A DNA stretch of 63,863 nt, taken from NCBI GenBank assembly GCA_044892505.1, contig CM097883.1:408084138-408148000 (forward strand), in the 5' to 3' direction. This stretch comes from Schmidtea nova. Its lineage: Eukaryota. Positions 4,007 through 45,410 of the stretch are shown here, in pieces. The notes under the pieces are model-generated. The model saw only the letters and a program-made list of their open reading frames with translations. It was not told the origin of the DNA and ran no database searches. Every line of letters begins with the position of its first letter. Position 1 is the stretch's first letter. Position numbers and translations under genes: made by a program.

Positions 4007-4548
4007 TTAATCAGTGATGGAAAGTTCGATTGTTTCGACAGATACCTTGCGGAGCTGCCCCAGGAGTCGAGCCTCCTGACGTCGCTTCCGACGGGCAGGA
4101 ACTCCTTTACTGGGATGCCATTTCTTTGGACGATCGGTAGAAGGCGCGCCATCCGTTTGTCGAGATGGTACCACCCCATTTGTCCGAACGGGGAACAATT
4201 CCATTGTAAGGAACTCTGCTTTCGGTAGAACCGCTGCAACGATGCCGGCGTCGATCTTCAGCTGTGTAACTTCGGCATCCCGCTGCCTCAATGGCGTCTT
4301 CACGGCCTGCAGTTGGAGCGCGTCCTCAGCCGGATCTGTTTCCGCATCTTCTCGGTGCCTTCCACGTTCGCCCAGGTGGATTCCACCTTACGGCACCGAT
4401 AACGGAATTTCTCCATTTATTCCATTGTCCCTCGGAGCTCGGCGTACATTAGCTTCTTCTCTTCTTCCATCTCGAACACGCGGCCTGTCAAATGACGCAT
4501 GCTTCGATGAACTCCCGTCAACTGCCCCAGTACCTGGTCAATTTTCAT
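4007..4548 (-). pseudogene. Orphan coiled-coil/Arg-rich ORF family, copy A (one stop, one frameshift)
   Basis: Reads MKIDQVLGQLTGVHRSMRHLTGRVFEMEEEKKLMYAELRGTME*MEKFRYRCRKVESTWANVEGTEKMRKQIR / AEDALQLQAVKTPLRQRDAEVTQLKIDAGIVAAVLPK...WHPSKGVPARRKRRQEARLLGQ. It is colinear with 5787-6341. Confidence 0.85.
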
Positions 4549-5344
4549 TTACAATCTTAAATATATACATGTTCATTTTAATGATAATTAAATCCTAAAA
4601 CCCTCAAACATTCATATAAGTAAATACAAATCATTCACTCGAATTTACCACTCAATTCGGCAATCAATCATTCCGCTAAAAAACATATTTTCGGGGGTAT
4701 TCGACAACCATTAACTTCATCCAAATGATTAATGTTTTCTTTTTTTCGAAATTATTGTTCTTATTAATTAGAAACTCAAGCTAACTATAATTATCCAACC
4801 CTATTGTCTATTTTGCTATATTAATAGGTTTTAATGATTTTCTAGGAATTTTATATTTTAATTTTTTGAAATTTTGCAGCGTCCCTAGCAACAGGTAACG
4901 ATCCAAAATTTTCTCTAAATTCAGTCTGATTTATTAATATTTTGTCATGAATTTGACGTGCTTTATTGTTATTTTTGGATATAGAATTATATTTCAATTT
5001 GGGAAATAAAATTTCATTTGTCCTGTCGTGGGAATTACCTACGTTCCCTCGATGCAAGAATTTACTATATAAATGAGAATGTAAATTTAAAGAACTCTGA
5101 TATATTATGGGAATTTAAATCCTATTATACGTTTATCGATTTCTGAATCCAAATATAGAAAAAGAATTTCCCCTTATTCTAACTGCATCTATCAGTAAGT
5201 TAATTTAATTTTTCCCTTTTAAGTGTTTCATTTATGGTTTAGACCCAGCTCCAACTCCAGCTGTCTTTCGAATTTCTATTAAACTCAGCTATATATAAAT
5301 TGTCATATATTTTATCATTACTATCTAATTTTTTTATCACTGGT

Positions 5345-5550
5345 GGGTTGTTGATCGTCAATATGACCTTGACGTTACTATGGCTCGCATCAACAACTCA
5401 ACACATAAAACATTGAAATAACCATCTTGTTACCCGTCACTATGTAACGTTGGTACTGTAACAAGTGGGTGGGTATTCGCAATCAGTGAGCGTCGTCAAT
5501 ACGAAACTATGATTGACCGAATATCTCCTGGGTCCAAGGGCTACCGATAG
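5345..5550 (-). repeat. Conserved ~200-nt stem-loop-rich element, copy B
   Basis: Stem 5347-5355 / 5389-5397 with inner hairpin 5356-5361 / 5369-5374. A second stem CTTGTTAC/GTAACAAG encloses CGTTAC-ATA-GTGACG (read on the minus strand). Confidence 0.9.
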
Positions 5551-5786
5551 AAGGTTTCTCGCCCCTTTTTGTCCCTCCTATGCATTATTTACTTCAGAAA
5601 ACTTCATATACTTCATTTACTATTGAACCTCAGTTGCTTTTAATCAATTTATTCTATACATTGCTTTATTTCATTCAATCATTCAACCCAAAAAAAATAA
5701 AAACAAGAGAACACTTTAATTAAAAAAAACAACACAAACTACAAAAAACAAATAAATACACGATGGGATATTAGTTGTCTATTAAA

Positions 5787-6341
5787 TCACAAAGCAGTAA
5801 TGTCTATTATGTCTACAGATTCTTTGCGGACTCGTCCCAGCAGTCTCGCTTCCTGCCGACGTCTTCGGCGAGCCCTCACCCCTTTATTGGGCTTCTGCCT
5901 GGCCGTCTTGGCGGGAGCAGGAGGTGCCAATATCTGTTCCTCGACCCTCACTGGGAACAACTCTTGAGACAGACAGGGTGGTTTTGGCTGGACGGCGGCA
6001 ATGATACCACTGTCCAATCTTAGCCGTTCATTTTGTGTTTCCAAGTCCCTGATTGTGACTCGGCACGCCCGCAATTTCATTGCGTCGTCCGCAGCCTGCT
6101 GCAACAACATCTGGATTTGCTTGTGGAGTTTGTCGACGGTCTCTTTGTTCGACCACGTCGACTCCATCTCCCGGCATCGCGCTCTGAACTTCTCCATCCG
6201 AGACGTCATGATCTGTAATGCATCCGTATTTGAAGTTTTCGCCCTCTCCATCTCGGCGAAACACTGGTCTACCCGGCGATTATGGCGGGCATTTTCCACA
6301 ATCAGCTTGTGTATTTCTTCGAATTTCTGTTCAATATTCAT
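5787..6341 (-). CDS. Orphan 184-aa coiled-coil protein with Arg-rich C-terminal segment (family copy B, intact)
   Basis: Uninterrupted, GC-richer ORF. Amino-acid motifs MEKFR..C..MESTW.N.E, SGIIAAV.PK, ELFP.R and RARRRRRQEARLLG are shared with two diverged paralogues in the window. No known family recognised. Confidence 0.65.
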   Translation of the reverse strand: MNIEQKFEEIHKLIVENARHNRRVDQCFAEMERAKTSNTDALQIMTSRMEKFRARCREMESTWSNKETVDKLHKQIQMLLQQAADDAMKLRACRVTIRDLETQNERLRLDSGIIAAVQPKPPCLSQELFPVRVEEQILAPPAPAKTARQKPNKGVRARRRRRQEARLLGRVRKESVDIIDITAL

Positions 6342-9300
6342 CTAAAAATTATACAAGAATAACCCATTCCCGTCGTCACTCAACATTCAATTTTAAATAT
6401 TCATTTTAAATCAATAAAAATAAAATCATTTTGATCTAAGAACATTTATCAATTTTTTATAACCAACACAAAATTATCTCAATTCACGCATTCATTAATG
6501 TTTACCCTCAAATATACCATCGCCAACTCAATTCGGGGATCAATTCTTCCTATAAAAGACATATATTCGGGGACTTCCAATCGCTGTGAAAATTATCAAA
6601 TTGACTATTATATTCAAAGTTGTATAAATTTTTGTGTTTTTCATATTTAAAATTTGGAGAAACTTGATTTATATATTAATCCTATTGTCTATCTTGCTTT
6701 ATAAGTTTAATTATATTTTTATTAAGATTTTATGAGTTTAACATTTGAATTCTCGCCGAGGCATTGGCAACGGTATCAATATAAACTGCCTAAATATCAA
6801 GTAAATTTTATTTTATTAATATCTTTTAATTCCGAATATTTCCCTTATTTTCTAATTCTAAATTTAATTTTATTTTAGGAAGTTCTACTCAAATCAGGAT
6901 ATCCCAAAAAACGACGCCGTTCCCCCGCAAAAAGGAAAAACTATATAAACGCCAAGTAAAAATTCCAGGATTTTAATTGGTTAGTTATATTATATCATTT
7001 TCAATTTCACTATTACAAATATTGATTTCAGCGATGCTAATTTTAGAAGGAGATTCCTCCCAATTTTGATTTTTCAATTTAGTAAGTTATATTCAAATTT
7101 TGTGTTTGCAATTATCATTTTCACCTTTTAGTGTCTCAAATCTCCTGAGGTGGATGGTTGCTTCTACCCAGAACCGTAGCAAGCGGTAACATAAGTCGCT
7201 GCTCCTCCATGACAGAAGAGAAAAGAAGGAAAAAGAAATTTTCAATTTTTAACGATTACCGAATTAAAGTAATTTTAATATTGATTCATTTTATTTATTG
7301 ACATAATCCTGATCTTTCAGCCCAACTTATTATGAAAATTTTCCCATATCTGCTGGATTTCAATTGGAGATTTTCCATGATGTTTCTCGTTTGGATTTTA
7401 ATCTACCCTTGCTGATGGATTTTTATGCTTTTCTTCGCATCCCTGACAAATTCCAGCTCAATTTCATTCACTCAATACGGAATTTTTATGCCTCTGGATT
7501 TCATGATGCCTTTTATCTGACTACATTCAGGTGCTAAAAAATGTGAGTAAATTTTCGGTGTACAATTTTTCTTTCGAAATAAAAAATTGGTCTTTATTTA
7601 TTTTGATTTTTAAGATTCCATAACTTTTTTGAAGGAAAACAAAAAATTTTTTTTGGTCTTTAAGTAATGATTTTTTAACGCGTCTAAAGATGTTTTCAAC
7701 TGAAATTTAAGCACTATTGTTCGAACTTGTCCAATCCCTTATGATAATTTTTGAAAATGATTTGTTACTAATGTATCGATCCTGTTTCTTACGATTTATT
7801 TTAGGGATGGTAAATTATTATATAGAAAATTCTGTGGGTTTGTTAGAAAACTCGTTCCCCAATAAAAGGACAAAAAAAAGGTTAAAGTATTACAGTCTAC
7901 AAACAGTGTTATAGGATCTTACTGAAGGAATTTTTTGATTTCCTATGTAGATGGGTCGATTTTCCGAATGTTGATGGTTAGTTGATATAATTTGTTCGGG
8001 AGTGGATGTAGCGTTCCTAAGTTTGCATGTATGTATATGTTATTGTAAGTCTGAAATACATATCGTATTGTTATAATTTTTTGTGATTTGCGTGTGTTTG
8101 TATGTTGGGAATGATACGGTGGTAATATGCTATAAACAATGGGTGGGATTATATGAATATTTGTGGGGATCATCTGGATGTATGTCGCTAGTGGATATTG
8201 TGAGATGAAATCATGTCGTGTATGTTGGTGAGTGAATGTATTGTTTATGTATTGTCCAATATAGCAGATCCTATTGATCGAAATGTGGTAGTGTGTGTGT
8301 GTGTTGGTAACTGAATGTATTTTGTATTGTATTGAGTATAGGTGTTACTATTGAATGAAATGGATGTAAGTTTTTGCAAATAGGAATACAATATGATTTT
8401 GAGATATCGTGGGGGTTTTTAATAAAAATAATATATAATATACGTAAAATATTTTCCAAATTAAAATAATACTAATAATTTTATAATGATTTTTATAACT
8501 TTTTTAAATTTATAATTTTATGAAAATAGTAAGATTCCTAAATTTTTATACTTTATATTTTGAATTCAAATTTTTATATTTTAATATTAATCGTAAAATT
8601 TTCTGTAAAATCTCGAATTTGGAATTTTTTAAGATGATAAAATTTCTAGTATAATAATAATATTCTCGATTTATAAATTTTTTGGGTTTCATTATAAGTT
8701 CTTAGGGATTTTATAAAATAACAAAATCTTTTATATTTTTTATTATAAAAGTTTTTCAATGTAACAAAAAGTAAATTTTTATTTTTTGATCAAAACGAAA
8801 TCCACATAACAATAAAATTTTTATCCATAAATTTAGAAATCCAAATAAGCATTTAATCAAAAAAAAACTTTTATATGCTAAATAAAAAAAATAAAAATGA
8901 AATAAGTTATAAATTTTTCAACGAATATTTTTAACATCAAGTAAAGTAAATTTCGGTTTCGTCCGAACATGAATTTCCCAATCAAAGTGCGCGCGAATTT
9001 TTCGGGACACTTCACTTAGGAACTTCAGGCTCCCGAAAACAAGATTCACCAGAGAAAAATTATTTATATAATGAATGAGTTTTAATTCAGATCAATCAAT
9101 ACTTGTCCTAAATTCATTTCATTTCATGATCATTATATCCGTTTTGAGCATTATTTCATATGATTCTTTTCCAACATTAACTTCCATTTACTTCGGATAA
9201 GACGACAGTTGTTGTGAGAGTGAAGGCGACGACGAGTAAAATGATCTTGTACAATTATTTTTCCTAATGGAAAAGACATTGCTGGAGAGATTCGTCTTTA

Positions 9301-11710
9301 CGTTTACATGTGGTATTAATTTAAATGATAAATATGTCAGAAATTATAGATTCAAATAAACTACATTTATTATAAATTAAATATCATTAATATAACAACT
9401 TGCTTTTGGCCAAGCCACTGTTCCCCAGTTGGGATGAAGTGATCATGGATGGTTAGGCTATTCACCTGGACTCGGAAATATGGGCTGATCAATTTACGTT
9501 TCGAACCAGCGATCCGCTCAGGCTACTTCCACCCGATCGGCACAAGGCCAGACACAGGCTTCAGGGGGTACGGAAGAAAAAAATTTTTTTATTTATTTAT
9601 TTAATAGTTTGGACTTGAATTACTAATATTTTTTCTTTTTAATCATGAGAATTTGTAAAAAAAAAAATTTAACAAAATAAAAACAAATTCGTTAGCAAGT
9701 TATCCTATATTATTAGGATACAATTTAAGACATAAAATAAAATGAATATAATAAAATGAATTAAATAATAAATAAATAAAAATGGTGTCGATATGGGATG
9801 TCCAAAGGGCATGACTTTTTGGACTTCCCATGCCGATAACGCATATATAATGAGATAAAAAATAAAATAAAGCAAAAACCTTACGCTTAGTGTGGCTCCT
9901 GATCTTCTCAAAAAAATTTTTAATTCAAAATTCTATAGTAAAATTCTGGAACGAAACAAAACAACAAAAAAATATTCACTAATTCTGATTCTTGCCATTT
10001 TGATGGCGGTATATATACCATCGATTTTGCGTTACCTTCAGTAGTGTAATAAAACAAATTGTTCTAGAATTTTCCGTTTAATTTTCCTAAATTAATTCTA
10101 ATGATTTTCCGAAAATTAAATCCATATTTTTGTGTAATAATTTTTTATAAAACACAAATAATTTATTTTAATCCAAAATTTTTATTTTTGAATCGAAATT
10201 TGTTCGATTTAAATTAATTTACGATATTTCGATCAATATTAATTCTTTTTGTTGTTAATGTGAAATATTTTGATAAAATCACAGTTTTCGGCTAAAATTT
10301 TGTCAATTTTTCTCTGCATGAAGGTTTTATAACACAATTCCGTTTTTTATGGGTATTTTCAATGGGTTTTTCGCCTATTCCAACTTTTAAACGTTCTTCT
10401 TTTGATGGCATTTGATTTTTCTCGAGGTTTCAATGTAAGGGCTTTCAGACTCACAGCTAGCGCGTTCTCTACTGGTTGATGTGTTTTGAGTTCACTTCAC
10501 CTTTTGTTGTTTTTCACTTAATCGTTTGGATTTCTAATGGATGTTTGGGTTAAAACTGAATCTTGCGCGCTTTCTACCTATGGGGTTATCGCTTTATTAA
10601 AACAGTTTGTGGTTTTTGCCCAACAATACCTTTCTTCAAATATGACATTCTAAGGATGAAAAGAGTCAAAATTATCACACTGCATATAAAATATATCGAA
10701 AGGCAATTCATTAAACGAGCATTGCGAAGCTACAATTGCATGATGTATCAAATTTGATGCAATATTAAAAATAGCAATTTCAGTATCAAAAAACAATAAT
10801 TTTAAATTTATTTATATTTTAATTTAAAAATAACTTATTTGGCTGTTTCTTAAAATTTTTTTCTTCGTCAAAATCGCTTCAAAAATGTCTAAAACTCGAA
10901 TCTCAAATTGCTGAAATTCACCGACTGACAGTTCGTCTTCGAGTGACAAGTGAGGTTAATATTTTGGCGGTAACAGCGCCTCTAGGGGTTAAATTATGAA
11001 TTATATATATGCGTTATGAATGTATCTAATAAGTAAAACCATGAAATGATAGCTTATACTTTTTAAAGTACGTTTTTACATACAATTTCAGTGTTGAGGT
11101 CTCAAATATGTGTATTTGAAATCTTAACTGGGGGTGGCGATTCTTATATAAATAACGAAGGCAATAAGAGGTTTGCTTGAAAAATTTATTAAATAATAAT
11201 ATTTTTACCAATAAAAGTTGCACACAGATAAACGTTTTACAATTCAACACTTTAAATTCAATTTCAAAGTTCTGTTTGATTTTATATATTTTTGACCAAC
11301 TGGTCTATTTTAAATGCTCTACAGGATTTGTACATGAGAAAGCGAAATTTATTAGCAAAATTTTACACTGAATTTTATGGCAATCTGACTAAATTGTCAT
11401 TGCCTTATATACTAAAATTTATCATGCATTAAAATTTGATATTTATTTTTATGTACATTTTCAATTTAAAATTTGATATTTACAACTACTGAAAATTCCG
11501 CAATGGGAAAATTTGACATTTACAAACTGAACCAATTATTGAAAATTGAAATTATAATTATCGAAAATTCCCAAATATGATATTTATATAAAATACATTG
11601 TAAATTCCTAATAATCAATAAAATCAAGCATGCTCAGAAATAAAAATTAATAAAATAATTAAAGTCAAGCATGCTCAAAAGTAAATAATGAAATAGTCAT
11701 GTTAATCAGT

Positions 11711-21865: not shown

Positions 21866-22414
21866 AGCAGTTGCAAATAAATTGCAAATAATCCGCCAAT
21901 GCCCATCATCCACACATTATTAAACACCTAGCGGTTTATACCCAGGTGAGAACTGGATTATTATGTCTGTGTGCGCGATGGTGATGGTGTAATGATTTTC
22001 TTGGCGTGCGCACACAGACGCAAGGATCTTCGAATCGCGATTAAAAGAATAATTGGGCAGTGAAACTCAATCGATGAGATTTATGGATTGAAATTTGATT
22101 TGTTAAAATGATTTTTTTTGGAAATTATTAAAAACATTTCAGATAATGGATATTTGTTTATCTGAATTAATTGATTTATTTAGGGCAGAATTAATTTTTA
22201 ATTTGTTAATTGCTGAGCGTGATTTGTATTGGAGTTTTTATGAATTATTTGGCGAACTGATGGCATTGTAGATTGATTTTGTTTATACGGATTTATTTTG
22301 GAGTGAATTTATGAATTAGAATGGAACTTTTGATTTAGCTTCGAATTTGGAATTGTAATTTATAGAATTAAATAGAATCTTCGACACTTGGAATTGTTAT
22401 TTTGAATTTTAAAT

Positions 22415-22925
22415 ATGAATAGTGAAATGTTTTTGGGCGCATTATTTCAGGTCGAATATGCATTTAAAGCGATTGCGTTAGATGGATTACTTTCTGTTGG
22501 TTTTCGAGGTAATGATTGTGGCGTAGTTGCTACACAAAGAAAAGTCCCAGATAAAATGAACGAAAAGAGTTCAGCTACAAGATTATTTAACATAACTGAA
22601 AGTACCGGTTGCGTTAGGACCGGAATGATTCCTGATTGCGAATCGCAAGTATGCCGTGCACAAATGGAAGCTGCACGATGTGAATGTAACTTTGATTTCG
22701 AAATGTCCTGTGACAGGATTTGTCGATGTATTGCCGATATTAATCAATTGTACACTCAATCAGCTGCAATGAGGCCATTAGGCTGTTCAATGATTCGATT
22801 TTCTTACGATAAGGAGATGGAGAAGCCACTTTTATTCAAAACCGATCCAAGTGGATTTGTAGCTGGTCGTCGAGCTGTTGCGGGCGGTGGAAAACAGTTG
22901 GAAGCTAAAAGCTTTTGAGAAAGGA
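22415..22925 (+). pseudogene. PSMA6: 20S proteasome subunit alpha type-6 (alpha1) fragment, intronless, truncated at both ends
   Basis: GALFQVEYAFKAI..G..SV..RG.DC.VV.TQ.KVPDK....RLF.ITE..GCV.TGM..D..SQV.RA...IADI.Q.YTQ.A.MRPLGC.MI...DPSG...KQLEAKSF matches PSMA6. It lacks the N-terminal FSPEG region and the last ~60 aa, and carries many Cys substitutions. Confidence 0.92.
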
Positions 22926-23838: not shown

Positions 23839-24598
23839 TTAAATATGCAGGATAAGTTATATAAAAAATTATTAAATTATATTTGACCCAATGAATAAAA
23901 TTAGGATTTTAGTGGTTTAATTAAATATTGATATAATTCTACATTATTTTTCTTACAAAACATATTCATTTTCCCTTTATTTTCTATTTTTTGCAGCTCA
24001 ACATTTTGGGTATGTACTAAGCTAATCGGGTCAACGAAATTATATTTGTACTAGACAGTTTTATGGAAATATCCTTACTTGTTTAGTGATGAATAATTTT
24101 TATGCTCATCAGTAGTAATGATTGATCCAACAATTATACCATCTTTTATTACTGTAATTACTGTCATGGCATTATTATCCAGTGCCGCTCTTATAATGAT
24201 TTGTAAAAAAACAAATGAATCGCTTTTAACGTGTAGACTAAGACCTCGATGAGACGTACATTTATAATTTAGCATTGTCTTATCCAACTGATTAGTTTTG
24301 GTCACAACTATTTTTTATCCATATTTTAAAATATGCATTTCCTTTTTAATATATTCATTATACATACTTTAATCCGATATTTCTTTTTCATTCATTTTGA
24401 TAATAATTTCGGTTCTTCTGAAATTAAAAAATTAAAAACTCAACTATAGTTTTTAGTAAAAATACTTGCATATAAGCATGATTTTGTACTTGTTCCGGAA
24501 TTGGTGATATGAGGTTTATTTTTGTTTATTTGCATTTGATGCATGAAGGATCCGGTAAAATATTGGGATAACCATTCAAATATTTAATAACAATTGAT

Positions 24599-24880
24599 GT
24601 GATCTATCCTGCATATGGAAATATTTATCACAGCCAAACAATAACATATTATAATTGTCCTGATGCTGCAGAATTGAGAAAACTATCATATGAAAGACAT
24701 GCTGGTATTTGGTTCTGTTACTTATTTACTATCCCAATCAATTTACTAGCAATAAAAAGTGAAAGTGCGAATCAAATTGAAAGTGAAATCGAGGATAATA
24801 ATGAATATAAAATTGAATATATGATAAATAAAATTAAATATCTCAATAAAACACTTGACGAATTGCCGTTGCCGATTTGA
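24599..24880 (+). other. Unidentified 93-codon ORF/exon-like segment (second copy 32636-32917)
   Basis: Open frame with non-random-looking sequence (IYPAYGNIYH..YYNCPDAAELRKLSYERHAGIWFCYLF). No family recognised, and no ATG start. Confidence 0.25.
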
Positions 24881-26626
24881 TTAAATATGACTGCAGTTTG
24901 TATTACCGATTAACTCCTAGCAGTAATATGTCGCCTGTTTTCATTTGTATTAAATTGTATCTTTTCAAATTAACCAGTCTATTTAAATTATTAATAATAC
25001 GAAAAACATTTTTTACATTTAATGCACACGTACTTTTTGATTTTTTCAATTTTTACTTTTTTACCAAATTATTGGTTAGGAAATAAATAATTCTCCAATA
25101 AAAATTATCAAGATTAAAAGAAAATTAGTAAATGTAAAATTTGCTGAAGTTTCTTAGTTAATCAATGAAAGTCTATCACGATTTTTAGACATGAAAGAAT
25201 AAATAAAGTTTAAATAAAATAATTTCCTCTCCAATGGCTTCAGCATGTTATAATTAATTCCAAATCTAACAATTAATTTCATAGCCAGGTGTTATTTCGT
25301 AGATTTTCGAGCATTGCAAACAAATTTACTAAAGAAAAAATATATAGGATTATTTTATCAACGATATACAATCAAAAGAATCTGGGATCAGTAACCATAT
25401 TCATTATGTAATCAAATGAATTTCATGTATTACTGACAACCAATTATTATTTTTAATCAATAATAAAACTAAATTTTGTGTAAATTTTACGTTTGATAAA
25501 TTAAAGCACCATCACATAAATGAAATTAAAATCAAAAATTTCAACAACACAAACCAAAAAATTTGGAATCTAATAAAATGCACCTTATATTCTATAATGT
25601 AACTAATAATCTAAATGTATAATTAGAAATTCATATTATATTAATAATATATAAAATAAAATTCAAAATGCATAAATAAATTTTATACTTATAACTAATA
25701 ATCAAAATAAACCTTAACTAATGATCATGATTATTCAAATTCCAAATCGACAATATTCGATCATATAACAGAATTGAGCTGATAAATAGAAATGGTTAGA
25801 GTTCATTACATAACTAACATATCAAAAGTAGTAACATGTGACCCCTTAACACTATAGGAAAATGCCGTCCGTTCGAAGAACCCAACACTTTTTAATTTTT
25901 TTGTCAACCGTTGATTGATTTAAAGGATCGATATTCCGTTCGTTTTGAAATTTTCTAATCTACAATCTGATACTAGAACTTTGTACAAAATGATTTTATT
26001 AATATTTTTTATTATTTGTCATCAAGCTCCTTGGCGTATTTCCAACATCAATATCTCAGCGCATTTAAAATAATCTTAAGTTGACAACAAACTACAAATA
26101 AAACATCAACTAAGTTTTAACAAACAACTGTTTTACACATTTTCAAAAAGTGCCTCATTAGTTAAGGTGTGTACAAATAAAACTAAAGACATACTTACAA
26201 ATATTTACTTTGCAAATTCAAAATTTGTTGACTGCGAGAAATTACTATATTCCGATTTGAGGTCAGAAATTTGAGGTTAAAATTTTATTTTCTGTTAATC
26301 TGATATATTGATTAGTATTAATAATACTAAAAAAATTCAAATGACTTTTCTATTTACCGACAAAAACACAAATGGCTAGGAGAGAAGTCTTGTATTTCAA
26401 AATGAATAATTGAAAATGTATTCTTACAAATTAATGAAACGGAAATGTATTGTTTTGTTTTGTCATGTTGAAATAGTGTTAAACGTATATTTACTCTAAT
26501 CAATTTTTGAAGGCCATATCAATGGAATTGAAAAAGAATTTTAAATTGGATCGAATAAAATCGAGAATTATTTATTAATCTTTATTTATAAATCTTTTTT
26601 TTTTATAAATTATTTATTTACAAAAA

Positions 26627-26695
26627 GTTCGCAGAACCCCTGCTATCAGTCCACGGAACCCCAGGGTTTCGCGGAACAAACTTTGGGAAACGCTG
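26627..26695 (-). mobile_element. hAT (Charlie-like) element terminus (second copy 34664-34732)
   Basis: Reverse complement CAGCGTTTCCCAAAGTTTGTTCCGCGAAACCCTGGGGTTCCGTGG is a typical hAT end. Partner end not found. Confidence 0.6.
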
Positions 26696-28354
26696 AATTA
26701 GAATAACAACTATAAACCAAGATGAAGGATATGTATGAATCTTGTATTAACAAATCAAATATACATTAGTCTTGCATAAAGATATTGATTAACCAGTTAA
26801 TGAATTAAGTGTAAATCAACCTATTATTTTGTAATCATCTAAAATTTTAAAGGGTAATTGATATTTTATATATATTATTTTTCATCTTCTAGAATATCCA
26901 TGTGATTAAACTCTTCGTCTGATAAACTTCTTCCATTTTTCCTTCTAAAATATTCATACTAGAAAATAAACAAGATAAGTATGACTTTTCTCAGTGCACG
27001 ATATTCTTTAAAAAGATTCAATTTTTTTATAATTGATTTTATCGTCATCTTTTTCGTTTTTGTAATCAAGCAATTTTTAAATAAACGTTGCTCATCTCAA
27101 AGAAAGAAAATAAATAAATGTTATAAATGAGAAAGCTTAACAAGTGTTGGGCAAAAACTAAATCCATTTAATTTGAAAGCGAGCGAGGACATATAGCACG
27201 TAGAGACCATACAAGAAGTATGTGTAAATAGCTGAGCAAACACCAAATAAACAAAATTAATTAAAAAAAACTTTTTAATTGAACAAAAGCAAGAAATAAC
27301 CACGAACAAACACAAATATAACAAATAACAAGATATTCTTTAAAAATTAGAGAAATAAAGAAATTCTATAATTAATTATCTTAATTTTGATACCACAAAT
27401 CTAAAAATCTAAAAGTAAATTGTAAATATTAAAATTAAGTAGCTAAAATTTATGTAAAATATAAAGTTTTGATAAAAAAATTGATAAAATTGTACGTAAA
27501 AATTTATTTTTAGTAAAAATAAAATAAATTGAAAAAGCATTCAAGAAGTTTTTGTTTTACTGCATCAATTTAATTAAATGCTGGGAAAATGGTATAAATA
27601 GAGATGCCATTTTTATTTATTTTAACACTTGAGAATTGGAGAAATTTTCGCAAATAATTAAGATTCTTTCCGAAAATTTTTAAAATTATTTTAACAAAAG
27701 AGAAAAACCTCTCACCAACTGAGAAGTAAAATTCGGAGGCGCAAAGCTGTTCAAATTTTTGGAGAGACGGTATCATTCTGATAATACAGGGTATGCCAGT
27801 TTGATGTTTTGCTCGTGCCGTCATTTTATTCTGCATCGGCTCATGGCACGGTTATTAATTTTTTTATTTGTTCATGCTACTCAATAATATTCAATAAATG
27901 TTTTTCAACAATTGATGTATTCTAAATCAAGGCGCAAAATCAATGCATGAATTAAAATGATTTTTTGCTTGTTTTTTGACCTTTGGACTATTTAACTCGT
28001 TGTGAATATCTCCAGGATGGTTTAGAGTTAGGGTGGAGAGTGTATTCTCTCAAACTTCCCAACCCCATGCTGTCGACTCGACATCAAATTCCAGATTCAT
28101 ACTTACGTAGATGTAAGATAACGGCCGGAGGATCATACGCGATGTTATAATAAAAATTTTGCTCCCTTAAAATAATTATTATTTTGTTTAAAATAAATCT
28201 GCTAAATAAAAATATCATTTATTTAATATATAACTAAACACAATATATAAACACAATATATAAACACAATATATAACTAAACACAAATTCAGTCACGATA
28301 TTCTATTTTGGATGAAGTTCTTTTGAGTGTGATTAATCATATATAAATAAGTTA

Positions 28355-29230
28355 ATGCAAAAAAGAACAGAACAAAGTATTGTGAGCGAGGAATCAAAAA
28401 CATCGGAAGGTGAATCGCCTTGGGAAAAGAAGAGTTTAAATCGATTGCAGAAAATAAAAATTCCTATTTTCGATTGGAAAGTGGTCGAGTTTGAGAAGTG
28501 GAAAGCTGCTTTTAATCAGGGAATAGACAAGACAGATGGAACAGCAGAGGATAAAATGCTGCATCTTAGGCAATATTTGGTTGACGAACCTCTGCGAATG
28601 ATAGAGACACTGGGTTATACAGCCGAAGGTTATAAAATGGCGAAAGGAGTTACGGATGTGAAGAACGTAGTTACCTGACTATGTTAGAAACTGTGGATAA
28701 ATTTCGGCCGGTACGCATAGGAGAAATAAAAGATTTGGATATTCTCGTTGGATTGTTGGAATCAATGGAGGTACGGCTTAAAGCAATTGGAAGAGAAGAG
28801 GACCTACATAGAGGCCGTTGTTGAAGAAATTGTTATAGAAATTGTTAATGAAATTACCAGCTTCTTTACTTATTCGATGACAAAGAGAGCAAACGAAAGA
28901 GGAAGGTGAGGAATGGAGTGGTTTCAAAATGAAGCTGACCTAATACGATCGACAAATGAAATATTATATGGTTTTGGTTGTAAAAAGGATTTCAATTGAC
29001 AATATGGGCAGAAATACTTCAAGGCTTCTGAAAAGATTGACAATAGAAGGTACTCACGCTTTACAAACCCTTGCAATGATGTAAAACAAAACTCAAATAA
29101 AGGTGGAGAAGGATTAATCATGCAACAATATCAAAGCAGGTTGATTTGTTTCAAATGCCAAGGGGCGCATTATCTAGATCAATGCCCACAATTAAAATTA
29201 TTGACAGTAAATGACAGGAAAATTAATTTT
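28355..29230 (+). mobile_element. BEL/Pao LTR retrotransposon gag remnant (copy 1)
   Basis: LQKIKIPIFDWKVVEFEKWKAAF...EDKMLHLRQYL..EPLRMIETLGYT..GY (DUF1759-like), and a downstream knuckle CFKCQGAHYLDQCPQLKLLTVNDR. Frameshifts and stops present. Confidence 0.8.
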
Positions 29231-29719
29231 CATTTAATAAAATTTAATTATGCGATGAAATCCCAGCGAGCAGGCTCCGTCGAAATAAGGTCGCTGTTGG
29301 CAAGCTGTAAACTGAATATAAAAAAACCAAAGACGCAAAATTTCTAGATTGTGCAAGGAATCATTTGTCTTATTGATTGAAATAAAATCAACTCAATTTA
29401 CAAATGTAAGAAAGCTAAATTAATAACTAATAGACCAAACTCACCGATTCAGTGATCACTTATCGCAGCATATAATTGTTACGGTGTTCGCCATATTCAC
29501 TACAACAAATAAACTAAACCCATTGAGCGCAAATTGATTTTTACCACCATGAAAATAATTCTAAAATCAATTATGATCATAAAAAGATACATTTAATAAA
29601 AACAATTAATAAATACAATCCTGAAAACAAAAGTCCTATTGATTACTATATTCTATACAAAATAAACATTATTACGTAATGAACAAGATATTTATTGAAT
29701 CTACAAAAATAAACTCATT

Positions 29720-30130
29720 TAATCTACAGCGGTGTTCGATTATTCGGGTTCTGGTTGTGGGTAGTTTGTTCCCTCAATTTCAGACAAATGAATTGGAATT
29801 TCGCAATAATCGTTTTTCCTTTCTATGCCATTGGCGACGTGTTCGCTTCCCTGACTTGTTCTTACTTTTCTTGGCAAATTTAAGGATCTCTTCAAGCTGT
29901 TATGGTGTGTTCGATTTTTGTCTTTGTACTTTCCATTCATCTTAACACCAACTGCGTTCGATTTCGGTTCCGTTGGTTCTCGCCTTTTGATGAATAGTTT
30001 CGAATTTGATTGAAATTGATAGAGTTCCACGAGAATTAGGTACTCTTCTTCCCACTGTACGATCACGTGAAATCCGCGTTCATAAACCATTTCCTTCGTC
30101 GACGGCAGAGGCAGGAGTGCGTTCATTACC
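29720..30130 (-). mobile_element. Gypsy-like integrase remnant, internally deleted (second copy 37757-38167)
   Basis: LLPLP...YERGFHVIVQW..EYLILVE resembles the integrase start (P..PW.RVH.D.....YLI.VD). TTRTRIIEHRCRLN resembles the pol C-terminal TRSGR.IKPP.RL tail. Confidence 0.45.
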
Positions 30131-31739
30131 TCTGAAAAAAATATTTTTCATAATATTTTCATAATTATAAACAACAGTATAATTGAAGACCAAACCCATT
30201 ATCATCAATTGACAATGCTCTAAATCTCGAGTACAGAGAAGACGACCAATCTTCTCCAAGGTACGTAGCATTTATTTCACGACATTTTAAAAGTGAAACG
30301 AGTTTAATATAAAGATCAGAAGAAAAATATAAGTATTGCTAACAGTCACACCAGTTAATTTAATTTTCGCAAATATTGAACTAAATACAATTTGAATAAA
30401 CGATATGTTCTATCCAAATATAACACTAGAGGATGCACACTTAAAGATTGCGAGAAGCTTCTTTTCAAATTTAAACATCACACCAAAATCCTATGAAAAT
30501 TTACGAGTCCATATCCCAATAACTCTTTTTGACAGTCAATACGCCTGGTTGCTGAGATAATGTCCAACCTCACTTCAATCTCGTTACACAGGTCTCTTTC
30601 AAGTAATAAAGATTTATTCAGAAAATAATGCAATGATTATTATTGTATGCAAAAAAAACCAAAAACTGTCAATCTCTTTAAGGTAAAACCCTCTTTTCAC
30701 ATCAAAGAAAGCGACAATATCTGAAATAAATAAAATGTGCTTAAAAAATGTGCTTAAATAAAATGTGGTGGGGCTTTCAGATAGTTTGATTAAATGTGTA
30801 AATGTAAATATTGTTTTATTGAAAAAAGAATTAATGTTAGCCTGGATAATAAAATAATTAGTTTCTATTGATTATTCTACAGTGCATTATATAATTGAAA
30901 ATACTTAATTATAATCATTATTATAATTTATAATTTTACTATTAACAATCTTAACACCAGTATACCAAGAAAGGTATTCAATAAAGTTCTTTCTTCACGT
31001 CTCCTGTATAGCACTGATGATCGTCAAAAGTTCGAAATTATTCTGTTATCAGGGATCTGCACTGGGTATCACAAAGCTTTTATTGTAATTCTTTAAAATT
31101 AAAAATTAAATTTTTAATAAAATTAAGATTATTTCGACAATAATCAAAAGTTTAGATACAAATAAAGAATTATTAAAAAATAAAATGAAAATTTAACTTT
31201 TAAATACTTTCCCCTGACATTTTTCAGGGGAAAATGTCTGTTCTACTGGATGAAAATGTTCATGTATAATGATAATATGTAAAATGATAAGCAAGGATCA
31301 TCTTTATAAAATGTCCAAACGATCGATATCGCAAATTTGTTTCATACGGATTTCTACACCAGGTAGCGATTGAAATGATCCGATTCCATAAATAATGACT
31401 AAGGAACTATAATTTGATTGCGGTTTAAATTTACAGCGAAATTAGAAGAGAACATAAAGAAATTGCACAATTGATCTTTTAAGGAAATGCTTACCGAGTA
31501 GCTGTATCACTATTACTGCCGAAAAGAAGAAAATATTCAGTAGAAGCATTAAGTTTTTTAAGGCAGTCACCAAGAGGCAACTAGAAAAAAGATGAGTAGG
31601 ATGCTGAACGGTTTTCATTGGCACACTATTTACAAAAATTGCTTATGAAATTTGCTTTCATTATCATTAGTGGGATATGTCCCCGCCAGGTACAATATTC
31701 CACAAACAGTGTTATGTAATAATTTACATTTAGCCATTT

Positions 31740-32549
31740 TACGTAATATGAGGGGCCACATTTAATATAATAGGGTTTTAATATGATTCAATAAGGTCGA
31801 TTATCAAGTAACATTGCATCATTTATGCAATATTGTTTAAATTCAAATATTACGTAACACTAGGGCTCAACCAGTTTCCTCCTAGGGTCTCAGTTGCATG
31901 GTTGGGCAATTTCACAGTACGATTTATTGACTCATACAAATTTTCCAATACTTTATTTTGCAAAGCAGTGAAAACATTAAATAATTTACCATTTACTCGA
32001 TCGGAGTTATTTACATTAACAATCATTGACAACAAATAAATATTTTCATATGATCTTGCCACCAATCAGAAAATCCTTGAAACAACAAAAGTTGCCCCCT
32101 ATTTGGGAAAGAGTTACCAATGAAGAATATCAAACAGCACAAAAACTATGATAGGAAGCATCGTGTGATATGCTAATGGTTTATATTCAAATATATATGA
32201 AGCTTGATGTGTTTTTGCTTGCTGATTTTTTCAACAATTTCCAGCACATTATGAACTCGAGCCATTTAACTTTTACGTAATCCCTGGAATATCTTGGGCA
32301 TCTGCACTCATTACTTTAAAAGAACCATTAGAATTATTAATTGATATATAGAAATGTATAATTTCTTCGATAGTGGTATTCGTCGTGGTTTTATATTTGT
32401 AAATAAACACCACGTAGTAACGGATGATGAAACAGAGTTGCTTTATATTAATATAAATAACCTGTACGGATATGTATTAAGTCAGAACTTACCATGTTGG
32501 GAATTTGAGTGAATATGTGATGAAGTACACTGCTTTAGTTCAAAACTGG
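31740..32549 (+). mobile_element. Polinton/Maverick protein-primed DNA polymerase B remnant (copy truncated by the duplication junction)
   Basis: RFIDSYKF; TNEEYQTAQKL; YMKLDVFLLADFF; YELEPFNFYVIPGISWASAL; MYNFFDSGIRRG; LLYININNLYGYVLSQNLP..EFE. These match the Polinton pPolB motif order. Confidence 0.88.
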
Positions 32550-32550
32550 T

Positions 32551-35500
32551 GTTTATTTTTGTTTATTTGCATTTGATGCATGAAGGATCCGGTAAAATAT
32601 TGGGATAACCATTCAAATATTTAATAACAATTGATGTGATCTATCCTGCATATGGAAATATTTATCACAGCCAAACAATAACATATTATAATTGTCCTGA
32701 TGCTGCAGAATTGAGAAAACTATCATATGAAAGACATGCTGGTATTTGGTTCTGTTACTTATTTACTATCCCAATCAATTTACTAGCAATAAAAAGTGAA
32801 AGTGCGAATCAAATTGAAAGTGAAATCGAGGATAATAATGAATATAAAATTGAATATATGATAAATAAAATTAAATATCTCAATAAAACACTTGACGAAT
32901 TGCCGTTGCCGATTTGATTAAATATGACTGCAGTTTGTATTACCGATTAACTCCTAGCAGTAATATGTCGCCTGTTTTCATTTGTATTAAATTGTATCTT
33001 TTCAAATTAACCAGTCTATTTAAATTATTAATAATACGAAAAACATTTTTTACATTTAATGCACACGTACTTTTTGATTTTTTCAATTTTTACTTTTTTA
33101 CCAAATTATTGGTTAGGAAATAAATAATTCTCCAATAAAAATTATCAAGATTAAAAGAAAATTAGTAAATGTAAAATTTGCTGAAGTTTCTTAGTTAATC
33201 AATGAAAGTCTATCACGATTTTTAGACATGAAAGAATAAATAAAGTTTAAATAAAATAATTTCCTCTCCAATGGCTTCAGCATGTTATAATTAATTCCAA
33301 ATCTAACAATTAATTTCATAGCCAGGTGTTATTTCGTAGATTTTCGAGCATTGCAAACAAATTTACTAAAGAAAAAATATATAGGATTATTTTATCAACG
33401 ATATACAATCAAAAGAATCTGGGATCAGTAACCATATTCATTATGTAATCAAATGAATTTCATGTATTACTGACAACCAATTATTATTTTTAATCAATAA
33501 TAAAACTAAATTTTGTGTAAATTTTACGTTTGATAAATTAAAGCACCATCACATAAATGAAATTAAAATCAAAAATTTCAACAACACAAACCAAAAAATT
33601 TGGAATCTAATAAAATGCACCTTATATTCTATAATGTAACTAATAATCTAAATGTATAATTAGAAATTCATATTATATTAATAATATATAAAATAAAATT
33701 CAAAATGCATAAATAAATTTTATACTTATAACTAATAATCAAAATAAACCTTAACTAATGATCATGATTATTCAAATTCCAAATCGACAATATTCGATCA
33801 TATAACAGAATTGAGCTGATAAATAGAAATGGTTAGAGTTCATTACATAACTAACATATCAAAAGTAGTAACATGTGACCCCTTAACACTATAGGAAAAT
33901 GCCGTCCGTTCGAAGAACCCAACACTTTTTAATTTTTTTGTCAACCGTTGATTGATTTAAAGGATCGATATTCCGTTCGTTTTGAAATTTTCTAATCTAC
34001 AATCTGATACTAGAACTTTGTACAAAATGATTTTATTAATATTTTTTATTATTTGTCATCAAGCTCCTTGGCGTATTTCCAACATCAATATCTCAGCGCA
34101 TTTAAAATAATCTTAAGTTGACAACAAACTACAAATAAAACATCAACTAAGTTTTAACAAACAACTGTTTTACACATTTTCAAAAAGTGCCTCATTAGTT
34201 AAGGTGTGTACAAATAAAACTAAAGACATACTTACAAATATTTACTTTGCAAATTCAAAATTTGTTGACTGCGAGAAATTACTATATTCCGATTTGAGGT
34301 CAGAAATTTGAGGTTAAAATTTTATTTTCTGTTAATCTGATATATTGATTAGTATTAATAATACTAAAAAAATTCAAATGACTTTTCTATTTACCGACAA
34401 AAACACAAATGGCTAGGAGAGAAGTCTTGTATTTCAAAATGAATAATTGAAAATGTATTCTTACAAATTAATGAAACGGAAATGTATTGTTTTGTTTTGT
34501 CATGTTGAAATAGTGTTAAACGTATATTTACTCTAATCAATTTTTGAAGGCCATATCAATGGAATTGAAAAAGAATTTTAAATTGGATCGAATAAAATCG
34601 AGAATTATTTATTAATCTTTATTTATAAATCTTTTTTTTTTATAAATTATTTATTTACAAAAAGTTCGCAGAACCCCTGCTATCAGTCCACGGAACCCCA
34701 GGGTTTCGCGGAACAAACTTTAGGAAACGCTGAATTAGAATAACAACTATAAACCAAGATGAAGGATATGTATGAATCTTGTATTAACAAATCAAATATA
34801 CATTAGTCTTGCATAAAGATATTGATTAACCAGTTAATGAATTAAGTGTAAATCAACCTATTATTTTGTAATCATCTAAAATTTTAAAGGGTAATTGATA
34901 TTTTATATATATTATTTTTCATCTTCTAGAATATCCATGTGATTAAACTCTTCGTCTGATAAACTTCTTCCATTTTTCCTTCTAAAATATTCATACTAGA
35001 AAATAAACAAGATAAGTATGACTTTTCTCAGTGCACGATATTCTTTAAAAAGATTCAATTTTTTTATAATTGATTTTATCGTCATCTTTTTCGTTTTTGT
35101 AATCAAGCAATTTTTAAATAAACGTTGCTCATCTCAAAGAAAGAAAATAAATAAATGTTATAAATGAGAAAGCTTAACAAGTGTTGGGCAAAAACTAAAT
35201 CCATTTAATTTGAAAGCGAGCGAGGACATATAGCACGTAGAGACCATACAAGAAGTATGTGTAAATAGCTGAGCAAACACCAAATAAACAAAATTAATTA
35301 AAAAAAACTTTTTAATTGAACAAAAGCAAGAAATAACCACGAACAAACACAAATATAACAAATAACAAGATATTCTTTAAAAATTAGAGAAATAAAGAAA
35401 TTCTATAATTAATTATCTTAATTTTGATACCACAAATCTAAAAATCTAAAAGTAAATTGTAAATATTAAAATTAAGTAGCTAAAATTTATGTAAAATATA

Positions 35501-38500
35501 AAGTTTTGATAAAAAAATTGATAAAATTGTACGTAAAAATTTATTTTTAGTAAAAATAAAATAAATTGAAAAAGCATTCAAGAAGTTTTTGTTTTACTGC
35601 ATCAATTTAATTAAATGCTGGGAAAATGGTATAAATAGAGATGCCATTTTTATTTATTTTAACACTTGAGAATTGGAGAAATTTTCGCAAATAATTAAGA
35701 TTCTTTCCGAAAATTTTTAAAATTATTTTAACAAAAGAGAAAAACCTCTCACCAACTGAGAAGTAAAATTCGGAGGCGCAAAGCTGTTCAAATTTTTGGA
35801 GAGACGGTATCATTCTGATAATACAGGGTATGCCAGTTTGATGTTTTGCTCGTGCCGTCATTTTATTCTGCATCGGCTCATGGCACGGTTATTAATTTTT
35901 TTATTTGTTCATGCTACTCAATAATATTCAATAAATGTTTTTCAACAATTGGTGTATTCTAAATCAAGGCGCAAAATCAATGCATGAATTAAAATGATTT
36001 TTTGCTTGTTTTTTGACCTTTGGACTATTTAACTCGTTGTGAATATCTCCAGGATGGTTTAGAGTTAGGGTGGAGAGTGTATTCTCTCAAACTTCCCAAC
36101 CCCATGCTGTCGACTCGACATCAAATTCCAGATTCATACTTACGTAGATGTAAGATAACGGCCGGAGGATCATACGCGATGTTATAATAAAAATTTTGCT
36201 CCCTTAAAATAATTATTATTTTGTTTAAAATAAATCTGCTAAATAAAAATATCATTTATTTAATATATAACTAAACACAATATATAAACACAATATATAA
36301 ACACAATATATAACTAAACACAAATTCAGTCACGATATTCTATTTTGGATGAAGTTCTTTTGAGTGTGATTAATCATATATAAATAAGTTAATGCAAAAA
36401 AGAACAGAACAAAGTATTGTGAGCGAGGAATCAAAAACATCGGAAGGTGAATCGCCTTGGGAAAAGAAGAGTTTAAATCGATTGCAGAAAATAAAAATTC
36501 CTATTTTCGATTGGAAAGTGGTCGAGTTTGAGAAGTGGAAAGCTGCTTTTAATCAGGGAATAGACAAGACAGATGGAACAGCAGAGGATAAAATGCTGCA
36601 TCTTAGGCAATATTTGGTTGACGAACCTCTGCGAATGATAGAGACACTGGGTTATACAGCCGAAGGTTATAAAATGGCGAAAGGAGTTACGGATGTGAAG
36701 AACGTAGTTACCTGACTATGTTAGAAACTGTGGATAAATTTCGGCCGGTACGCATAGGAGAAATAAAAGATTTGGATATTCTCGTTGGATTGTTGGAATC
36801 AATGGAGGTACGGCTTAAAGCAATTGGAAGAGAAGAGGACCTACATAGAGGCCGTTGTTGAAGAAATTGTTATAGAAATTGTTAATGAAATTACCAGCTT
36901 CTTTACTTATTCGATGACAAAGAGAGCAAACGAAAGAGGAAGGTGAGGAATGGAGTGGTTTCAAAATGAAGCTGACCTAATACGATCGACAAATGAAATA
37001 TTATATGGTTTTGGTTGTAAAAAGGATTTCAATTGACAATATGGGCAGAAATACTTCAAGGCTTCTGAAAAGATTGACAATAGAAGGTACTCACGCTTTA
37101 CAAACCCTTGCAATGATGTAAAACAAAACTCAAATAAAGGTGGAGAAGGATTAATCATGCAACAATATCAAAGCAGGTTGATTTGTTTCAAATGCCAAGG
37201 GGCGCATTATCTAGATCAATGCCCACAATTAAAATTATTGACAGTAAATGACAGGAAAATTAATTTTCATTTAATAAAATTTAATTATGCGATGAAATCC
37301 CAGCGAGCAGGCTCCGTCGAAATAAGGTCGCTGTTGGCAAGCTGTAAACTGAATATAAAAAAACCAAAGACGCAAAATTTCTAGATTGTGCAAGGAATCA
37401 TTTGTCTTATTGATTGAAATAAAATCAACTCAATTTACAAATGTAAGAAAGCTAAATTAATAACTAATAGACCAAACTCACCGATTCAGTGATCACTTAT
37501 CGCAGCATATAATTGTTACGGTGTTCGCCATATTCACTACAACAAATAAACTAAACCCATTGAGCGCAAATTGATTTTTACCACCATGAAAATAATTCTA
37601 AAATCAATTATGATCATAAAAAGATACATTTAATAAAAACAATTAATAAATACAATCCTGAAAACAAAAGTCCTATTGATTACTATATTCTATACAAAAT
37701 AAACATTATTACGTAATGAACAAGATATTTATTGAATCTACAAAAATAAACTCATTTAATCTACAGCGGTGTTCGATTATTCGGGTTCTGGTTGTGGGTA
37801 GTTTGTTCCCTCAATTTCAGACAAATGAATTGGAATTTCGCAATAATCGTTTTTCCTTTCTATGCCATTGGCGACGTGTTCGCTTCCCTGACTTGTTCTT
37901 ACTTTTCTTGGCAAATTTAAGGATCTCTTCAAGCTGTTATGGTGTGTTCGATTTTTGTCTTTGTACTTTCCATTCATCTTAACACCAACTGCGTTCGATT
38001 TCGGTTCCGTTGGTTCTCGCCTTTTGATGAATAGTTTCGAATTTGATTGAAATTGATAGAGTTCCACGAGAATTAGGTACTCTTCTTCCCACTGTACGAT
38101 CACGTGAAATCCGCGTTCATAAACCATTTCCTTCGTCGACGGCAGAGGCAGGAGTGCGTTCATTACCTCTGAAAAAAATATTTTTCATAATATTTTCATA
38201 ATTATAAACAACAGTATAATTGAAGACCAAACCCATTATCATCAATTGACAATGCTCTAAATCTCGAGTACAGAGAAGACGACCAATCTTCTCCAAGGTA
38301 CGTAGCATTTATTTCACGACATTTTAAAAGTGAAACGAGTTTAATATAAAGATCAGAAGAAAAATATAAGTATTGCTAACAGTCACACCAGTTAATTTAA
38401 TTTTCGCAAATATTGAACTAAATACAATTTGAATAAACGATATGTTCTATCCAAATATAACACTAGAGGATGCACACTTAAAGATTGCGAGAAGCTTCTT

Positions 38501-40586
38501 TTCAAATTTAAACATCACACCAAAATCCTATGAAAATTTACGAGTCCATATCCCAATAACTCTTTTTGACAGTCAATACGCCTGGTTGCTGAGATAATGT
38601 CCAACCTCACTTCAATCTCGTTACACAGGTCTCTTTCAAGTAATAAAGATTTATTCAGAAAATAATGCAATGATTATTATTGTATGCAAAAAAAACCAAA
38701 AACTGTCAATCTCTTTAAGGTAAAACCCTCTTTTCACATCAAAGAAAGCGACAATATCTGAAATAAATAAAATGTGCTTAAAAAATGTGCTTAAATAAAA
38801 TGTGGTGGGGCTTTCAGATAGTTTGATTAAATGTGTAAATGTAAATATTGTTTTATTGAAAAAAGAATTAATGTTAGCCTGGATAATAAAATAATTAGTT
38901 TCTATTGATTATTCTACAGTGCATTATATAATTGAAAATACTTAATTATAATCATTATTATAATTTATAATTTTACTATTAACAATCTTAACACCAGTAT
39001 ACCAAGAAAGGTATTCAATAAAGTTCTTTCTTCACGTCTCCTGTATAGCACTGATGATCGTCAAAAGTTCGAAATTATTCTGTTATCAGGGATCTGCACT
39101 GGGTATCACAAAGCTTTTATTGTAATTCTTTAAAATTAAAAATTAAATTTTTAATAAAATTAAGATTATTTCGACAATAATCAAAAGTTTAGATACAAAT
39201 AAAGAATTATTAAAAAATAAAATGAAAATTTAACTTTTAAATACTTTCCCCTGACATTTTTCAGGGGAAAATGTCTGTTCTACTGGATGAAAATGTTCAT
39301 GTATAATGATAATATGTAAAATGATAAGCAAGGATCATCTTTATAAAATGTCCAAACGATCGATATCGCAAATTTGTTTCATACGGATTTCTACACCAGG
39401 TAGCGATTGAAATGATCCGATTCCATAAATAATGACTAAGGAACTATAATTTGATTGCGGTTTAAATTTACAGCGAAATTAGAAGAGAACATAAAGAAAT
39501 TGCACAATTGATCTTTTAAGGAAATGCTTACCGAGTAGCTGTATCACTATTACTGCCGAAAAGAAGAAAATATTCAGTAGAAGCATTAAGTTTTTTAAGG
39601 CAGTCACCAAGAGGCAACTAGAAAAAAGATGAGTAGGATGCTGAACGGTTTTCATTGGCACACTATTTACAAAAATTGCTTATGAAATTTGCTTTCATTA
39701 TCATTAGTGGGATATGTCCCCGCCAGGTACAATATTCCACAAACAGTGTTATGTAATAATTTACATTTAGCCATTTTACGTAATATGAGGGGCCACATTT
39801 AATATAATAGGGTTTTAATATGATTCAATAAGGTCGATTATCAAGTAACATTGCATCATTTATGCAATATTGTTTAAATTCAAATATTACGTAACACTAG
39901 GGCTCAACCAGTTTCCTCCTAGGGTCTCAGTTGCATGGTTGGGCAATTTCACAGTACGATTTATTGACTCATACAAATTTTCCAATACTTTATTTTGCAA
40001 AGCAGTGAAAACATTAAATAATTTACCATTTACTCGATCGGAGTTATTTACATTAACAATCATTGACAACAAATAAATATTTTCATATGATCTTGCCACC
40101 AATCAGAAAATCCTTGAAACAACAAAAGTTGCCCCCTATTTGGGAAAGAGTTACCAATGAAGAATATCAAACAGCACAAAAACTATGATAGGAAGCATCG
40201 TGTGATATGCTAATGGTTTATATTCAAATATATATGAAGCTTGATGTGTTTTTGCTTGCTGATTTTTTCAACAATTTCCAGCACATTATGAACTCGAGCC
40301 ATTTAACTTTTACGTAATCCCTGGAATATCTTGGGCATCTGCACTCATTACTTTAAAAGAACCATTAGAATTATTAATTGATATATAGAAATGTATAATT
40401 TCTTCGATAGTGGTATTCGTCGTGGTTTTATATTTGTAAATAAACACCACGTAGTAACGGATGATGAAACAGAGTTGCTTTATATTAATATAAATAACCT
40501 GTACGGATATGTATTAAGTCAGAACTTACCATGTTGGGAATTTGAGTGAATATGTGATGAAGTACACTGCTTTAGTTCAAAACTGG
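32551..40586 (+). repeat. 8,036-bp tandem duplication, copy 2
   Basis: Near-identical to copy 1. Two substitutions noticed: TTTGGGAAA vs TTTAGGAAA near 26684/34721, and ATTGATG vs ATTGGTG near 27914/35951. Confidence 0.97.
36392..37267 (+). mobile_element. BEL/Pao gag remnant (copy 2)
   Basis: Duplicate of 28355-29230. Confidence 0.8.
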
Positions 40587-45243: not shown

Positions 45244-45410
45244 TTTCGAATTTTTCGACACTCACTGTTTGCAGCCATCCACCTATTTGTTGCATGCCAA
45301 CGTTACATTGTGACTGACAACTAGATGATTTTAGATAATGTTTTATGTGTTGAGTTGTTGATAGAAGCCACAGCACGTCAAGGTCATATTGACGATCGAC
45401 AACCTACCAC
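45214..45410 (+). repeat. Conserved ~200-nt stem-loop-rich element, copy C
   Basis: Inverted homologue of 5345-5550. Stem GTTGTTGAT (45354-62) / ATCGACAAC (45395-403) has one T.G wobble. Confidence 0.88.

Follow-up and report, generated by a model that had tools for sequence, protein, structure and literature searches.

What keeps a block of about 200 nt more constant than the open reading frames (ORFs) beside it is the question raised by the window, the whole 63,863-nt stretch of Schmidtea nova DNA analysed here. Three copies of the block, A, B and C, were found at about the positions given in a preliminary description, and the block is indeed more alike than the adjacent ORFs, with identities of 88.4% (A/B), 81.8% (A/C) and 81.9% (B/C) vs 62.4, 56.9 and 58.5% for the ORFs. 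The boundaries had to be moved: the 5' side starts earlier, with a conserved motif at 5554, and the 3' end is sharp at 5341. In addition, a fourth homologue, copy D, had been missed. Substitutions between A and B fall, as described, mostly at codon positions 1 and 2 of the plus frame (9/8/2 at positions 1/2/3), but this frame, which is antisense to the LTR identified below, is not open as had been claimed: it holds one stop in B and two in A, and these stops rule out the block as a coding sequence in the plus frame.

Table 1 Features of the window, with strands of the block copies in LTR sense.
Feature	Position	Strand
Conserved U5 (or R-U5) block, copy B; the feature under study	5341-5554	-
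Whole solo LTR of copy B, 5,285 bp, TGTTGGG...CCCACCA	5341-10625	-
U5 att end; short inverted repeat, 6/7 complementary to the U3 end at 10619-10625	5341-5347	-
Helix P3; base closed in 5' LTRs by pairing to the LTR end and the primer-side spacer	5341-5414	-
Inner CGUCAA hairpin, family-specific	5356-5374	-
Helix P2; two stems, lower and upper, separated by a conserved bulge; strongest covariation	5422-5467	-
Helix P1; long hairpin whose internal loops carry conserved motifs	5471-5528	-
Near-invariant 5' motif common to sister families, unpaired in the model	5540-5554	-
184-aa ORF inside the LTR, coiled-coil-like, basic C-terminus	5787-6341	-
Copy A; older, decayed U5 block with a mutated end and a 12-nt deletion on the 3' side of P2	3537-3738	-
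Copy A frameshifted ORF remnant	about 4007-4548	-
Copy C; older, decayed U5 block without the 5' motif	45214-45409	+
Copy C ORF remnant, internal stop	44704-45225	+
Copy D; P1-P2 of a divergent sister family, P3 apparently truncated, possible end near 1733	1784-1929	-

A genome search with the block returned 1,107 candidates, of which 40 were scored (99-100% identity) and 30 loci were kept. All 30 of these B-type loci share an identical CCCACCA terminus at the base matching window position 5341, beyond which lie differing flanks or, in 5 of the 30, a common primer site. When ten-kb stretches were compared, a second common end appeared 1.9-6.4 kb away, at window position 10625 in copy B, and the whole unit reads TG...CA on the minus strand in that copy. 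The outermost 7 bp of an LTR are the integrase site. The tally covers 18 units: an exact 4-bp target duplication flanks 9, an internal region adjoins one side of 6, and the remaining 3, including copy B, show neither (3 of the 20 fetched loci, without a co-oriented far end, are excluded from this tally). Of the 12 units that do not run into an internal region, the apparent solo LTRs, 9 carry the duplication. The flanks of the copy B LTR, TCAC and ATAC, are imperfect as a target duplication. Furthermore, 4-bp duplications surround two two-LTR elements, and in two-LTR elements the block is repeated in direct orientation at the two ends, with LTR identities of 99.78, 99.77, 99.03 and 99.95%. These results demonstrate that the block is the U5 terminus, a label assigned by position, of the 2-6.4 kb LTR of a giant Gypsy element with Burro architecture, not a stand-alone RNA. 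The copies in the window are remnants, either solo LTRs or partial, broken ones; the far LTR end was not found for copy A or copy C. A DNA transposon with short TIRs and a Helitron end were also considered as identities of the unit, and both were rejected by the primer site, the paired LTRs and gag-pol. A scan of viral contigs gave one match, to the 15-mer alone, which was read as chance, and a metagenome scan gave none.

The primer site lies 10 nt beyond the LTR end and corresponds to tRNA-Pro(TGG)+CCA, with an 18/18 match to the 3' end of the genomic tRNA. Exact junctions of LTR end and primer site number 2,037 (0 in the reversed control), and the tRNA-Pro 3' pattern has 1,106 matches genome-wide. 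A tandem array with a 308-bp period at G000:C1 459.61-459.66 Mb also carries this pattern, and one of its units was confirmed as tRNA-Pro(TGG). A pattern search uncovered sister families that share the primer site and have a 6-nt spacer and a block that is homologous though diverged. One full two-LTR copy measures 29.5 kb, with 4.1-kb LTRs that are 99.95% identical and a 4-bp duplication, and contains a single frame of 5,006 aa (stop to stop) in the order gag, CCHC, MATH, fusion-type env, PR, RT, RH, IN and ANK, in which the PR-RT-RH-IN domain order of Gypsy (Metaviridae) is present. Other family members without pol carry TRAF, IAP and coiled-coil ORFs. BIR and RING motifs were detected above the cut-off in family members, and BCL2 below it (E 7.7e-6) in another copy; BCL2 and dUTPase were not found in the 5,006-aa frame at E 0.01. 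Following six sister-family primer sites downstream led to env-pol polyproteins at two, to TRAF/IAP remnants with an opposite-oriented pol at one, and to little or nothing recognisable at three. Young pol-less two-LTR derivatives were noted at G000:C1 575.43-575.46, 497.94-497.99 and 105.38-105.40 Mb, and these retain intact protease-ankyrin, TRAF, IAP and membrane-protein ORFs. MATH and RING/zf-TRAF pieces on the minus strand of the window (57942-58562 and 62464-63135) are 25-32% like the element TRAF and are either host gene exons or part of another family. The window further holds a proteasome alpha-subunit frame (22406-22918), a near-identical tandem duplication with an 8,037-bp period (about 24500-40500), inverted-repeat arms around an N stretch that are likely a DNA-transposon remnant (45441-46822), a 791-aa frame of no family (48124-50499) and a Pif1-type, Helitron-like helicase fragment (56304-56972).

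The ORF that accompanies the block in the window belongs to the LTR itself. It matches no Pfam family and only unnamed entries of the Atlas; a further family member was seen at L034 8624-9259. In all three window copies the ORF is preceded by a T-rich, acceptor-like AG and by a conserved block (6508-6773, 4650-4898). Genome-wide, the ORF occurs within 1.5 kb of the block in 22 of 147 loci (6/29, 8/29, 5/29, 3/30 and 0/30 in five sets), showing that it is an optional cassette within a multi-kb LTR. The unit had been described as an ORF plus a 3' element, which does not hold: the ORF is optional and the block is the LTR end. The block is more conserved than the ORF because every replicating copy, whether autonomous or not, needs the LTR end, while the LTR interior and the ORF cassette turn over.

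We then consider whether the block is a conserved RNA structure. From a sequence-only alignment of 18 hand-picked sister-family copies, with truncated ones left out, three helices (P1, P2 and P3) were predicted. In this alignment 17 of 37 pairs are compensated and 94.3% of cells are paired, none of 500 shuffles was as good and slid controls reached 31-43%, counts that are to be read with the structure having been predicted from the same alignment and with shuffles that ignore relatedness. In a held-out test, a P1-P2 model built from 17 sister copies gave a full-length match to copy B (38 bits, E 2e-11); this sister-only model also matches copy D, with 96 bits. Copies A and C were not found by this model with default filters; with filters off, A scored 10 bits and C gave nothing on the right strand. 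In a fitted 34-row alignment, 22 of 30 pairs are compensated. Covariation across copies, which had been expected of a structured signal, is seen between sister families. Within the copy B family, RNAalifold applied to 67 copies was uninformative and missed the structure, with compensation at 1 of 20 pairs and an energy of -6 kcal/mol. Folded singly, the copies are no more stable than shuffled sequences, with sense z values of -0.15 (A), -1.21 (B) and -0.22 (C) and similar antisense values. A distal complement of the near-invariant 5' motif was sought in three elements, and none was better than 4 mismatches apart from one perfect match, which we read as an inverted nested LTR end.

The evidence is strongest for P2. 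In motif-anchored comparisons all 9 representatives form 5/5 pairs in its upper stem, for which they have six different sequences (non-cognate mean 3.2), and 7 of the 9 form 7/7 pairs in its lower stem. Duplex tests were less clean for the other helices, the cognate arms being the best in their row in 5/9 (P1 lower) and 4/9 (P3), a shortfall that comes partly from ties, one mis-anchored row and one invalid row. Even within the family, one pair of P1 (A-U in 37 and G-C in 25 of 67 copies) and one of P2 (G-C in 53, A-U in 7) are compensated. The hairpins highlighted in the preliminary description take their place in this model unevenly. The 9-bp stem is present (5389-5397 with 5347-5355) as part of P3, and the GUUAC/GUGAC hairpin (5435-5449) lies within P2. 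The inner CGUCAA hairpin exists in the sequence, but it shows no compensatory change and is absent from the sister families; within the family it only decays, without strand bias (outer pair CA in 6 vs TG in 4 of 67). The structural proposal was right, then, in that the block is structured, although the conserved structure consists of three long helices rather than the hairpins singled out. In the sisters (L173, L176, L178, L181 and L244) the P2 loop GGGA and a P3 bulge UCCC are complementary and could form a kissing or pseudoknot pair.

When the primer site was blocked in the folding, P3 extended past the LTR end into the spacer. This boundary helix closes just before the primer site, with 9/9 pairs in 35 of 37 anchored copies with a 10-nt spacer (3 unanchored copies excluded) and 6-7 of 7 pairs in 29 of 30 sister copies with a 6-nt spacer (1 unanchored copy excluded), so that a longer spacer is accompanied by a longer complementary P3 arm. 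The helix is A/U-rich and nearly invariant and shows little covariation of its own. Because the spacer must adjoin the LTR end, this helix can form in the 5' LTR copy only. A stem enclosing the primer site was rejected for the copy B family, where shuffles were as good in 48-89% of cases (6 family copies); 4 of 14 sister copies fell under 5%.

A related arrangement was seen on the 3' LTR side, in elements outside the window. No polypurine tract precedes the 3' LTR in the elements examined, which is atypical yet outweighed by the other LTR features. The site instead carries a conserved 7-bp hairpin followed by a G/C palindrome (e.g. G000:C1 about 3.392 Mb, L283; L292-L321), the C-run of which resembles the tRNA-Pro 3' end. 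From the palindrome to the 3' LTR the distance is 10 nt in the copy B family and 6 nt in the sisters, mirroring the primer-side spacer; the 6-nt value comes from 312 matches to a pattern admitting short spacers alone. We tentatively suggest that Burro-like elements might set both cDNA ends by an undescribed structure-guided scheme, in which a lineage-wide three-helix leader and a 6- or 10-nt spacer precede the tRNA-Pro site at one end, and a hairpin and a tRNA-like C-run stand the same 6 or 10 nt from the LTR at the other, which has no purine tract. Such a scheme, which we hold to be possible but doubtful, would imply non-canonical plus-strand priming and the removal of long end extensions. 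If mirrored spacers and a missing purine tract do mean distinct priming, it would extend the known ways in which LTR elements set their ends.

Taken together, our data suggest, with a probability of roughly 0.7, that the block is the U5 end of a giant Burro-architecture Gypsy LTR and that its covarying helices P1-P3 likely form in the leader RNA; a likely role there is to position the tRNA-Pro primer site, and packaging may be another. The block would be transcribed into the leader of the element RNA, P1-P3 would fold there with the base of P3 closing across the LTR boundary onto the spacer and adjoining the primer site, and this fold would hold the primer site in place for reverse transcription to begin and probably also serve Gag recognition or packaging. 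The tests run here fit priming and packaging alike. The pol-less derivatives keep the block intact, as expected of a cis signal. The earlier proposal of a cis-acting structured RNA or RT-recognition signal at an element terminus agrees with an LTR end that lies beside a tRNA primer site and has helices covarying across families, but the signal is not a 3' one, since the boundary helix acts in the 5' LTR.

The best-placed alternative, which we nevertheless consider unlikely, keeps the same LTR block and RNA fold but gives them RNA processing as the main job, namely a control of polyadenylation or splicing that differs between the 5' and 3' LTR, as is reportedly exerted by the R regions of HTLV-1 and foamy viruses. 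It would account for a conserved U/GU-rich run in the P3 5' arm that resembles a downstream poly(A) element, and the formation of the P3 base in the 5' copy only could act as an RNA-processing switch; yet no conserved AAUAAA lies in or near the block across families. In the sisters a GCGTAAG(T/A) resembling a splice donor also sits directly 5' of the block, 8 nt before the conserved motif (at 1930-1937 in the window), but it is replaced in the copy B family.

Which strand folds bears on a second alternative, in which the functional fold is one of single-stranded DNA (minus strong-stop DNA), or is a signal for processing the unusually long 6/10-nt extensions beyond the att ends. The consensus energy is better for the sense (-29.7) than for the antisense strand (-18.2), although 14 of 30 pairs covary in the antisense alignment as well. 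G.U and A.C cells stand at 18:17 in the unfitted alignment and at 46:17 in the fitted alignment alone, and two positions opposite spacer U's carry A or G and no other base, in 65/65 ungapped and 67/67 copies; these inherited G.U states fit sense RNA, a weak argument since both states are transitions. The U.G pair of copy C, formerly offered as strand evidence, is a private state, seen in 1 of the 67 aligned copies, and is given no weight here. The antisense compensation, a DNA fold z of -2.4 for the LTR-sense strand of B and spacers that covary in length at both ends of the internal region (10/10 vs 6/6) agree with action at the DNA level, which we regard as improbable. Sense RNA is favoured as the folded form, though not proven, and we infer that the fold acts as RNA rather than as single-stranded DNA.

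A new self-cleaving ribozyme forming an RNA end, also raised earlier, found no support and appears very improbable. Near-invariant unpaired motifs among freely covarying stems and the possible GGGA/UCCC loop-loop pairing in sisters would suit one; against this, both loop-loop motifs are missing in the copy B family, and Rfam 15 gave no match over 5341-5554 at E 10 or in 6 loci at E 1. LTR replication, moreover, needs no cleavage just upstream of the primer site. These three alternatives rank in the order RNA processing, DNA level, ribozyme. Despite the high copy number and loose ORF linkage, there is a negligible chance that the block is a short mobile element in its own right (MITE/SINE) or the 3' signal of a unit that bears the ORF, for the target duplications flank the whole 2-6 kb unit and not 200 nt, one end alone is sharp, the primer site and gag-pol follow the block, and the two-LTR elements refute this reading.

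The leader fold that we favour has relatives among LTR elements. Retroviral U5-IR and U5-primer-site hairpins and their Tf1 equivalent, which are reportedly needed for priming, likewise place a U5 hairpin against the primer site. Unlike those hairpins, the structure found here comprises three long helices over about 215-260 nt, the 6-10 nt between the att end and the primer site are paired inside the hairpin, and no supported stem encloses the primer site in the copy B family. For Ty1 and Ty3, a compact structured 5' region is tied to priming, dimerisation and packaging, and the Ty1 cis-elements are located largely in GAG and use a bipartite tRNAiMet site (PMC4974528); the tRNA-Pro site here is a contiguous 18 nt and the structure lies inside the LTR. 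In a general treatment of LTRs, TG...CA short inverted repeats of about 7 bp form the integrase site, and R/U5 is more conserved than U3, partly via stem-loops (PMC3601003); the present block differs from the consensus given there in having no clear AATAAA, and its elements in having no purine tract before the 3' LTR.

Burro (GYPSM1), the giant Gypsy of planarians, exceeds 30 kb, has multi-kb LTRs and thousands of copies, and encodes a single ORF1 of about 4,900-5,100 aa with gag, CCHC, MATH-TRAF, an in-frame env before PR-RT-RH-IN, and ankyrin (PMC6431247); the section of that paper on these elements is silent on LTR anatomy, primer tRNA and RNA structure. The element described here resembles it in a size of about 30 kb, multi-kb LTRs, thousands of copies and one long ORF of the same domain order (5,006 aa), as well as in BIR, RING and BCL2-like accessory motifs of family members; it differs in its length of 29.5 kb, measured on one full autonomous-type copy, and in that many copies are pol-less derivatives. 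It is called Burro-like here on the basis of its architecture, which also points to a planarian host. We found no description of a Burro LTR RNA structure or primer in the literature searched, although the original Burro paper may describe LTR ends or a primer site. Conserved, folded LTR ends are of a known kind, and Burro itself was already known; what is new is a covariation-backed model of leader RNA structure for one of the largest known LTR retrotransposon types. The many natural families amount to a built-in mutational scan of this leader, a marker is gained for decayed copies that BLAST overlooks, and priming and packaging in env-bearing elements become testable on a short RNA.
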